Origin: Bacilli bacterium
GTDB lineage: Bacteria; Bacillota_I; Bacilli_A; RFN20; CAG-826
Direction of reading: 5' to 3'
NCBI GenBank assembly: GCA_045597865.1
Contig: JAZLKX010000040.1
Span: 13,473 to 77,472 of the forward strand
DNA: 64,000 nt
In this document: positions 56,750 to 57,081 of the stretch, in pieces
Numbering within the stretch: the first letter of the stretch is position 1
How the letters are laid out: every line of letters begins with the position of its first letter
The notes under the pieces: model-generated
What the model was told of the DNA's origin: nothing
The model's input: only the letters and a program-made list of their open reading frames with translations
The model's database searches: none
Made by a program: the position numbers and the translations under genes

Positions 56750-56785
56750 TCTTTGATTTTATAAATCATTGTGTTATATTATAAG

Positions 56786-56840
56786 TGTCAAGGCAGTCGT
56801 ACCTAGATAAAAAGGAACCGGGGGCAACCGGTTCCTTTTC
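56786..56840 (+). ncRNA. Putative ~55-nt antisense (antitoxin-like) sRNA
   Basis: Promoter TTGATT-16-TATATT with TG extension (56753-56780). Ends in a strong terminator, has no ORF, and its 5' 20 nt are a direct repeat of 56857-56875. Confidence 0.55.
56810..56839. terminator. Strong bidirectional terminator
   Basis: Perfect 12-bp stem AAAAGGAACCGG-GGGCAA-CCGGTTCCTTTT. Confidence 0.85.
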
Positions 56841-56871
56841 TTCGTTTTTAATGGACGTCAAGGCGGCCGTA

Positions 56872-56934
56872 CTAGTCCTTATACAGGAGCTTTAAAGCAA
56901 CGAGTACAAGAACTAGGATGGTGAGATACTCCAG
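56872..56934 (-). CDS. Putative type I toxin-like hydrophobic peptide (20 aa, CTG start)
   Basis: (M)EYLTILVLVLVALKLLYKD: one TM-like stretch plus a charged C-terminus. SD GAAGGAGG 9 nt upstream of the CTG. Confidence 0.5.
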   Translation of the reverse strand: MEYLTILVLVLVALKLLYKD

Positions 56935-56990
56935 TTCACGGAGCCTCCTTCCCGATCAAACCGCCCTGGCGTCCCATGACGTTTGACCAT
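56913..56990 (-). CDS. Putative 25-aa leader ORF overlapping the hydrophobic peptide ORF
   Basis: MVKRHGTPGRFDREGGSVNWSISPS. Perfect SD AAGGAGGT 5 nt before the ATG. Confidence 0.4.
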   Translation of the reverse strand: MVKRHGTPGRFDREGGSVNWSISPS

Positions 56991-57081
56991 CCTTGACCTC
57001 CTTTTAAAAACTATCCAATTTTTCAATTGGCGAGCATAATTTATCATACTGTTTAATAGCTAACAATAGGGGGGATATACG

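Follow-up and report, generated by a model that had tools for sequence, protein, structure and literature searches.

What kind of genetic element fills the intergenic region between lysS and rpsF in an uncultured gut bacterium? The window considered here is a 64,000-nt stretch (positions 13,473 to 77,472 of contig JAZLKX010000040.1, assembly GCA_045597865.1) from a genome of the genus Candidatus Fiminaster / UBA3207, which belongs to an uncultured small-genome gut lineage of Bacilli, the order RFN20 (the relevant section of PMC8957277 gives UBA3207 as a GTDB genus in family CAG-826, order RFN20). In this window lysS (55259-56749) and rpsF (from 57284), both on the plus strand, are separated by about 535-539 nt, and an original prediction, made from the letters of the sequence, had placed in the gap a module resembling either a toxin-antitoxin (TA) locus of type I or a membrane peptide regulated by a small RNA (sRNA), with the layout of the par family. 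Our analysis supports that proposal: the peptide frame and the repeat are conserved, and no housekeeping RNA in Rfam matches the module. We consider it probable (roughly 70%) that the module is a chromosomal type I TA-like locus of a previously undescribed family, in which a par-like layout is joined to a hok-like leader and fold-back. Computation establishes the anatomy of the RNA, its conservation and covariation, the cognate specificity of its pairing and a coding signal, and from these we infer that both RNAs are transcribed, that the weak start codon is used, that the peptide is toxic, and what the pairing leads to. The features are listed in Table 1.

Table 1. Features of the module in the lysS-rpsF gap (positions of the window; SD, Shine-Dalgarno sequence; ORF, open reading frame; MFE, minimum free energy fold)
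Feature	Position	Strand	Details
sRNA promoter, predicted	56753-56780	+	-35 TTGATT, 16 nt, TG-extended -10 TATATT
Antisense sRNA, predicted ends, ~62 nt	56787-56848	+	22-nt single-stranded 5' tail (downstream repeat copy, 56787-56808), terminator hairpin, T-run
Peptide (toxin) mRNA, predicted, ~227 nt	56809-57035	-	from predicted start to terminator T-run
Bidirectional intrinsic terminator	56810-56839	both	12-bp perfect stem, 6-nt loop, T-runs on both strands; common to both RNAs and (by position) lysS
3' element of mRNA	56842-56875	-	upstream repeat copy 56857-56875 (sRNA target); 3' strand of long-range stem 56845-56866, partner SD1/ATG
Hydrophobic peptide ORF	56872-56934	-	CTG at start position 56934-56932, 20 codons (L/M)EYLTILVLVLVALKLLYKD, stop TAG 56874-56872
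Leader unit	56913-57001	-	SD1 GGAGG 57001-56997, ATG 56990-56988, 25 codons MVKRHGTPGRFDREGGSVNWSISPS, stop TAG 56915-56913
SD2 GGAGG	56944-56948	-	9 nt upstream of peptide start position
5' hairpin CCAATT GAAA AATTGG	57015-57030	-	in the MFE; near predicted 5' end
Peptide mRNA promoter, predicted	57038-57066	-	-35 TTGTTA (57066-57061), 17-nt spacer, -10 TAAATT (57043-57038)

RNA structure and its conservation across copies

The minus strand, which had been proposed as the functional one, folds (231 nt) at -96.5 kcal/mol with a z-score of -7.4, and none of 200 shuffled sequences folded as well, whereas the plus strand reaches only z -3.0, not far better than its shuffles. The other structural elements read from the sequence are also present: the two ends of the RNA can pair through a 19-nt inverted repeat (56845-56863 with 56991-57009, 84% complementary), the direct repeat spans 16 nt (56787-56802 and 56857-56872, 88% identical), the arms of the bidirectional terminator (56810-56821 and 56828-56839) are complementary at 100% of their 12 bp, and the plus-strand promoter lies where it had been placed and has a TG extension. 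The promoter of the mRNA probably has to be moved, since the sequence TATGAT (57048-57043) originally taken as its -10 box falls in the spacer of the promoter suggested by the alignment of paralogues, TTGTTA-17-TAAATT, which lines up with TTGACA-17/18-AATAAT of the paralogous copies.

A BLASTN search of 40 relatives with the 235-nt RNA matched only its first 54 nt (the 5' leader), in three genomes, and the loci behind these three matches hold complete homologous modules. A covariance model built from five copies led to two diverged paralogues in the window's own genome and to an eighth copy in a tandem array. A second model (R2, from eight copies) found 15 full-length copies, scoring 53-229 bits, in 4 of the 37 genomes of the genus, a count that leaves out weak matches in G007, G012 and G023. 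Three copies are in the window's own genome (G000), four in G008, three in G017 and five in G123, and the window copy scores 194.3 bits (E 6e-53, model positions 1-227). Common to the 15 copies are the 5' hairpin, a leader SD with its ATG (SD1), a second SD (SD2), the hydrophobic ORF (intact in 14), the fold-back, the terminator with its flanking repeat and the convergent sRNA promoter. The peptide frame and the repeat, whose conservation the original prediction had made a check on itself, are thereby kept in 15 copies of four species, and in one distant copy described below. Model R2 finds copies that BLAST missed and can be used for annotation.

The paired state of the RNA is supported by compensatory change. 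RNAalifold predicted 70 pairs, 26 of them with compensatory changes, from an unfitted MAFFT alignment of five copies. In the 8-copy alignment 89.5% of the cells pair, compared with 36-50% when the partners are slid by 1-3 columns, and both sides have changed in 40 of the 70 pairs, compared with 21.6 +/- 2.9 in shuffles (0 of 500 as high); it should be noted that these pairing figures lean towards structure, because the eight copies are related and had been aligned by fitting them to the model. The unfitted result agrees with the fitted one in direction. Among the individual helices, the 5' hairpin (helix 1) is 100% paired in the eight copies, with both sides changed in two of six pairs; both sides have changed in four of the seven pairs of the fold-back (helix 2); and the terminator (helix 7) is 97% paired, with both sides changed in 7 of 14 pairs.

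The module corresponds to no known RNA in the searches made. At the gathering score no Rfam family matched at the module in a scan of the whole window, which agrees with the expectation that it is not a housekeeping RNA. A cmscan of 56650-57350 with all 4227 Rfam families and E up to 10 returned only ncr1015, SpF25, Zeta-pan and RMST_8, far below gathering, and ARAGORN found neither a tRNA nor a transfer-messenger RNA.

There is a further conserved motif: about 35-50 nt ahead of the predicted mRNA start, the minus strand carries the C6-containing sequence ATATCCCCCCTATTG (57060-57080). It is common to five copies in three genomes, including the non-syntenic copies G008_C31 and G017_C1. Such a motif is not what one expects at ~35% GC, and it could serve as an UP-like element or as the site of a regulator.

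The peptide frame and the leader frame

The hydrophobic frame at 56934-56872 of the minus strand, which translates as LEYLTILVLVLVALKLLYKD followed by the stop codon, has the 20 codons described originally and is intact, with the correction that it has no ATG, GTG or TTG start and that its first codon is CTG. Across the family the hydrophobic ORF has 18-23 codons in the 14 intact copies, the fifteenth having a TAA at codon 3, and the peptides align as (M/L/I/V)-(E/Q/P)-(Y/A/L)-L, followed by ~12 aliphatic residues and a short polar or charged end. In line with the original statement that the peptide belongs to no recognized toxin family, Pfam held no family for nine peptides of at least 20 residues, nor for three further ones.

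In each of the 15 copies a purine-rich SD2 precedes the start position by 8-11 nt. The codon at that position is ATG in three copies, GTG in one, TTG in two, CTG in one (the window copy), ATC in four, ATA in three and ATT in one, each of them ATG itself or a one-base variant of it, and no other in-frame canonical start with a suitable SD was found in the 15 copies. A stop codon directly precedes the start position in three copies, which fixes the N-terminus. CTG and the ATH codons are presumably used as starts. Non-canonical start codons are noted in reviews to dampen some toxins of type I (PMC8167048), and the present family would take this further. In the copies with ATH, an ATG or TTG in the leader frame, out of frame with the peptide, lies 4-5 nt after SD2; more speculatively, it might serve as a decoy start.

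Because 9 of the 15 copies lack a canonical codon at the start position, translation of the peptide is deduced from signals of selection. Differences between copies fall mostly at codon position 3, then at position 1 and least at position 2: the closest pair gave 0/0/4 at positions 1/2/3 and other pairs gave 4/1/7 and 8/4/12, the 11 comparisons being alike, with position 2 in none of them the most changed. Public gut metagenome contigs show four variants within the ORF, namely 56895 A>G, 56902 G>A, 56920 G>C and 56923 G>A, all of them synonymous in the peptide frame. Judged from these alignments, the codon-position pattern is that expected of a selected aliphatic peptide, and the substitutions and the metagenome variants together fit selection on it.

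A leader ORF with a strong SD of its own is an addition to the earlier description of the locus. SD1 and its ATG are present in 15 of 15 copies, with leader ORFs of 7-40 codons. That of the window copy ends inside the peptide ORF, in another frame. The leader ORF extends past the peptide start in 13 of the 15 copies, and in one of these 13 it is in frame with the peptide; overall, the leader frame relative to the peptide frame is -1 in 10 copies, +1 in two and 0 in three. Among the last, the leader of G123_C11d runs in frame into the peptide ORF and that of G123_C2 stops upstream. The leader ORF has no codon-position bias, so that selection probably does not act on the leader peptide. A programmed frameshift leading from the leader into the peptide was considered and rejected: the frame relation varies between copies and no slippery site was seen. 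In the copy on contig C11 of G123 (locus L034, 1501-1723), the leader ATG is in frame and might give a fused product of 38 residues, MAVFERRSLHSGVWEGRMSLVEYLLILALILLIIKIND.

Predicted antisense pairing and proposed mode of action

All 15 copies have a -35/-10 pair for the sRNA at a distance of 27-39 nt from the terminator. Its -35 box is TTGnnn or TTTACA, the spacer has 16-18 nt, and the -10 box reads TATATT, TATAAT or TATCAT; nine copies have a TGn extension. The predicted sRNAs are 62-70 nt long and consist of a tail of 21-33 nt followed by the terminator hairpin. One copy of the repeat stands on each side of the terminator, and with convergent genes and repeats in direct orientation on the DNA, the sRNA tail is complementary to the mRNA. 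The repeat had been placed at the 3' end of the ORF and away from the SD; it indeed covers the stop codon and the 3' untranslated region (UTR), and in 15 of 15 copies the sRNA target extends from about the stop codon into the 3' UTR. The combination of an mRNA for a small hydrophobic peptide and an antisense sRNA with extended complementarity is therefore present at the level of predicted RNAs.

The pairing is specific to each copy. The sequence of the repeat varies between subfamilies, and the cognate duplexes of tail and mRNA have a mean of -29.0 kcal/mol (range -21.2 to -34.1; -28.4 kcal/mol for the window copy, starting at the stop codon), compared with -16.0 +/- 4.0 kcal/mol for 202 non-cognate pairs with dissimilar tails. 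None of the 15 tails has a target that surpasses its own mRNA by more than ~2 kcal/mol. These sRNA-target pairs, each with its own specificity, would amount to a compact set of orthogonal RNA-RNA regulators.

The same 3' element can also fold back on the 5' end of its own mRNA. Pairing between the SD1 region and the 3' element is predicted in every copy (15 of 15; cognate mean -20.6 vs -14.3 kcal/mol), and in the window copy the duplex of the two ends, which is the 19-bp end pairing of the original prediction, has -32.8 kcal/mol and dominates the MFE. The fold-back and the sRNA target have 6-16 paired nucleotides in common across the copies, 14 in the window copy; because the two targets overlap, the sRNA tail and the leader initiation region compete for one 3' element.

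On our reading, the minus strand would give a structured mRNA of ~227 nt for a 20-residue hydrophobic peptide, presumably membrane-active, whose synthesis would be held back by four brakes. The 3' element ahead of the terminator would fold onto the 5' end and cover the SD and ATG of the leader, while the SD and start of the peptide would sit in local hairpins inside and after the leader ORF. The start codon would itself be weak, CTG in the window and ATC, ATT, ATA, TTG or GTG in most paralogues. The fourth brake would be the convergent sRNA of ~62 nt, which shares the terminator hairpin and whose 5' tail would pair from the stop codon of the peptide into the 3' UTR. Pairing may begin at the complementary terminator loops or at the tail, and the resulting, nearly continuous duplex of ~50-60 bp may either mark the mRNA for decay or lock it in an inert complex. 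Since the repeat does not lie over the initiation region, the sRNA cannot block ribosome binding directly, and decay or an inert complex is favored over direct control of ribosome binding because a model of accessibility gave no consistent switch.

Several observations weigh against this reading. In the accessibility model, going from free to sRNA-bound mRNA changed SD1 from 0.33 to 0.38 and SD2 from 0.20 to 0.32, with mixed signs among 14 copies. The sRNA targets the 3' end of the mRNA and not a ribosome-binding site, and its competition with the leader initiation region for the same 3' element means that pairing could free SD1. A promoter scan of the region alone found 5 sites vs 2.8 +/- 1.8 in shuffles, which is not above chance; the call of the sRNA promoter takes its weight from conservation in 15 of 15 copies and not from the scan. 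The only contig from an RNA library (56469-56809) covers the end of lysS and the sRNA-tail region up to the foot of the terminator and shows neither strand nor RNA ends. In nine of the 15 copies, that of the window among them, the start position holds none of the codons ATG, GTG and TTG. With 18-23 residues the peptides are very short, and they match no toxin family; the model-fitted alignment of related copies belongs on the same side of the balance.

A more specific version, in which the peptide is routinely initiated at near-cognate codons and, in addition, the sRNA acts by mimicry of the leader initiation region, is tentative, and we think it rather doubtful in its entirety. On this version, evolution could adjust toxicity through the strength of the start codon. 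The sRNA tail, resembling the leader initiation region, would compete for the 3' fold-back element in a mirror image of hok/sok; its binding would mark the 3' end for cleavage and free the leader ORF, and translation of the freed leader, out of frame across the peptide start, would be a further block. If the CTG and ATH starts are real, the paralogues form a natural series in which start-codon strength tunes a lethal gene.

Accessory behavior, alternatives and relation to known systems

Searching the genus with the C-terminus of lysS and aligning the intergenic regions identified the module as an indel between lysS and rpsF. The gap with the module measures 539 nt in the window genome and 548 nt in G008. 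Without it the distance is 187 nt in G123, whose lysS is 99% identical to the C-terminal query, and 172-175 nt in six further genomes; of 30 lysS loci, only 2 have the module. Where it is absent and the spacers were aligned (G123 and G006), an ordinary terminator directly follows lysS. Metagenome joints that skip from 56749 to 57025 (X2) and from 56750 to 57252 (X1) hint at relatives without the module; because their sides have only 30 nt at 88% likeness, the case for an indel rests on the comparison of genomes.

Elsewhere the family behaves like an accessory element. On contig C37 of the window's own genome (locus L051, 5225-5317, 6798-7903 and 8093-8190), an IS3-type transposase pair (HTH and rve) stands between the other two module copies, in a neighborhood that also includes an orphan unit of terminator, repeat and promoter, and a 3' fragment of a peptide ORF. 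In G123 three copies stand in tandem within 1.2 kb, and tandem copies and remnants occur across the family. A gene for a YhcG-type PDDEXK nuclease lies near the module copies on contig C37.

These observations bear on the choice between explanations. An sRNA-regulated small membrane protein that is not a toxin, acting for example in transporter modulation or a stress response, with the sRNA tuning its level, would account equally well for the anatomy and the coding signals, and the window copy does occupy a conserved chromosomal site in two species. What makes such a protein unlikely is the family as a whole, whose traits are typical of type I TA loci and hard to reconcile with a housekeeping peptide: genomes carry multiple divergent copies, each with private sRNA specificity, some of them arranged in tandem arrays, one nonsense-mutated and others reduced to orphan sRNA or terminator remnants; copies adjoin an insertion sequence; presence and absence alternate between near-identical species; and the translational brakes are stacked. 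Somewhat less probable still is that the window copy is a silenced relic of a genuine TA family, with RNAs that persist and a CTG copy that makes no peptide. The syntenic copy in G008 has ATG where the window has CTG, and one copy, that with the TAA at codon 3, is clearly dead. Against this, the ORF of the window is intact, its four metagenome variants are all synonymous, and non-canonical starts occur in 9 of the 15 copies, among them pairs whose differences are confined to third codon positions, which argues that such starts are tolerated and functional and not a sign of decay.

The strong and conserved structure might alternatively be that of a non-coding RNA, housekeeping or element-borne, with both small ORFs incidental, and since most of the peptide ORF lies within the long hairpin of helix 6, its sequence conservation could be structural in part. 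We regard this as very improbable: Rfam gave no match either at gathering score or up to E = 10, the codon-position bias, length of 18-23 codons, fixed SD spacing and hydrophobic pattern persist despite nucleotide divergence, and, unlike a housekeeping RNA, the family is carried by only 4 of 37 genomes of the genus. The type I TA-like module remains the preferred explanation.

How does such a module relate to the systems already named? Features of par of the Enterococcus faecalis plasmid pAD1 and of the Fst/Ldr superfamily (PMC7472228) provide the closest layout. As in par/Fst, predicted promoters on both strands converge, a toxin mRNA of ~210-230 nt faces an sRNA of ~65 nt, the complementary hairpins of a shared bidirectional terminator can start the interaction, direct repeats form a second region of complementarity that is poorly conserved between paralogues and so gives private specificity, and the extreme 5' end of the toxin mRNA is structured. 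In par, however, the repeats DRa and DRb sequester the SD and start of the toxin, whereas the repeat of our module lies at the stop codon and in the 3' UTR in all 15 copies and leaves SD2 and the start uncovered; there is one repeat next to the terminator instead of DRa plus DRb. The 14 aligned peptides, unlike Fst/Ldr, have neither a Trp before a charged tail nor the P/D/S/T-xxx-G(C) motif (PMC7472228), they are only 18-23 residues long, the leader ORF and fold-back are present, and there is no Rfam or Pfam match. We place the module outside par because repeat position and peptide signature, two defining features of par, both fail.

The leader and the fold-back recall systems of Gram-negative bacteria. 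A short leader ORF with its own SD that overlaps the toxin ORF is known from hok/mok/sok of plasmid R1 and ldrD/ldrX/rdlD, and the T1TAdb paper, in the section concerned, lists leader ORFs for only two families, hok and ldr, both Gram-negative. There the full-length mRNA is kept inert by its 3' end, which folds back on the 5' initiation region, and in hok/sok this 3' end competes with the antisense RNA for the mok initiation region (PMC8167048); the predicted fold-back of our 3' end on the 5' initiation region, and the competition of an antisense RNA with an intramolecular partner for one site, are alike. The roles are permuted, as the mok initiation region is bound by Sok as well as by the 3' end, whereas in our module it would be the 3' element that is bound, by the sRNA and by the leader initiation region. 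In addition, the sRNA gene is convergent on the 3' side and not inside the 5' leader, and the peptide is unrelated to Hok and Ldr, with 18-23 residues and no Pfam match. AapA1/IsoA1 of Helicobacter pylori also has a 5'-3' long-distance interaction, which occludes the SD in the primary transcript (PMC8167048), but it belongs to a different phylum and its peptide is unrelated.

Antitoxins encoded on the 3' side are represented in Bacillus subtilis by TxpA/RatA, BsrG/SR4, BsrE/SR5 and YonT (T1TAdb paper; for SR4, PMC3834814). Our module resembles these systems in belonging to Firmicutes, in having an antisense RNA on the 3' side that pairs with the 3' part of the mRNA up to the end of the ORF, and in its likely outcome, decay of the mRNA. 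RNase III is the nuclease in such B. subtilis systems. They differ in that the true overlap in our module is only the terminator hairpin (~30 nt), the other pairing coming from an imperfect repeat and not from cis-antisense overlap, and in that its peptides are unrelated and much shorter and the leader ORF and fold-back are present. The Ibs peptides of Escherichia coli are of similar length, ~19 residues. Ibs/Sib also shares with our module very short hydrophobic peptides in multiple copies with copy-specific antisense RNAs; unlike our module, it is Gram-negative, Sib covers the whole ibs ORF in cis (T1TAdb paper), and shared terminator with repeat and leader ORF are absent.

Since no named family fits, the best reading of the sequences is a new family within the type I TA systems. 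In a full-text literature search, which did not extend to the entries of T1TAdb or to supplementary lists of candidates such as those of Fozo et al. 2010, no paper joined RFN20 with toxin-antitoxin, and none beyond the T1TAdb paper described leader ORFs for type I systems of Gram-positive bacteria. The T1TAdb paper, in its overview, counts 24 families of type I TA loci, mostly from cultured Proteobacteria and Firmicutes. Such loci are almost never annotated; the present family adds one from RFN20 and unites features known from separate systems, namely the par layout, a leader ORF of hok/ldr type and a 5'-3' fold-back.

Relatives outside the genus are rare. A 20-position profile of the peptide, run against 301 genomes of the order, recovered the known copies and one convincing distant member, G453, from another family of the order, which has a promoter, a 5'-3' closing stem over SD1, a leader ORF, SD2 with TTG and, on the flanks of the terminator, a repeat. 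Within the family, 150 more genomes were sampled and yielded only false matches (gene ends and terminators), and a sample of 401 genomes of the class Bacilli yielded a single candidate, G782. The pattern of the 5' hairpin occurred, among genome contigs, only in Candidatus Fiminaster equi and a Bacilli metagenome-assembled genome from horse feces (four loci); nothing was found with it in metagenome contigs and viral contigs, and neither plasmids nor phages matched the module in a BLASTN search. Weak model matches in other genera (G137, G070 and G144), in the genus (G361) and in the window itself (15236-15387) were rejected as ends of protein genes next to terminators.

A few loci are less easily placed. 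G317 encodes a similar peptide but has no SD2 or clear terminator, and is an uncertain relative. Three loci in G166, with a similar peptide that starts with ATG and a truly overlapping antisense promoter, were not counted and are a possible cousin of the family. In G782, from another family of Bacilli, positions 1390-1560 of locus L068 hold a 57-codon ORF that starts MEYLCILFLILITIWLIRKD (MEYL) and whose product has a basic tail after a Trp; its frame contains an intrinsic terminator, a TG-extended promoter converges from downstream, and the product has no Pfam family. This locus is possibly a par-like type I locus with a similar N-terminus.

The genes on either side of the module deserve brief mention. 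In the window (56749-56840) lysS has no terminator of its own, and the next one downstream is the bidirectional terminator of the module. As lysS transcription should run to this shared terminator, the 3' UTR of lysS may itself carry the whole antisense tail. On the other side, the 5' leader of rpsF (57200-57283) is conserved in four members of the genus, also where the module is absent; its conserved parts are CGCGAAAGCG, a hairpin GCTGACAGAAGATGTCAGC and CCAGAAGACCAAAGGGAGG before the ATG, and although it has no Rfam match up to E = 10, it looks like a ribosomal-protein autoregulatory leader. Further away, a bacterial small signal recognition particle RNA (22828-22913, minus strand, 59.7 bits) is the sole Rfam match at gathering score in the window.

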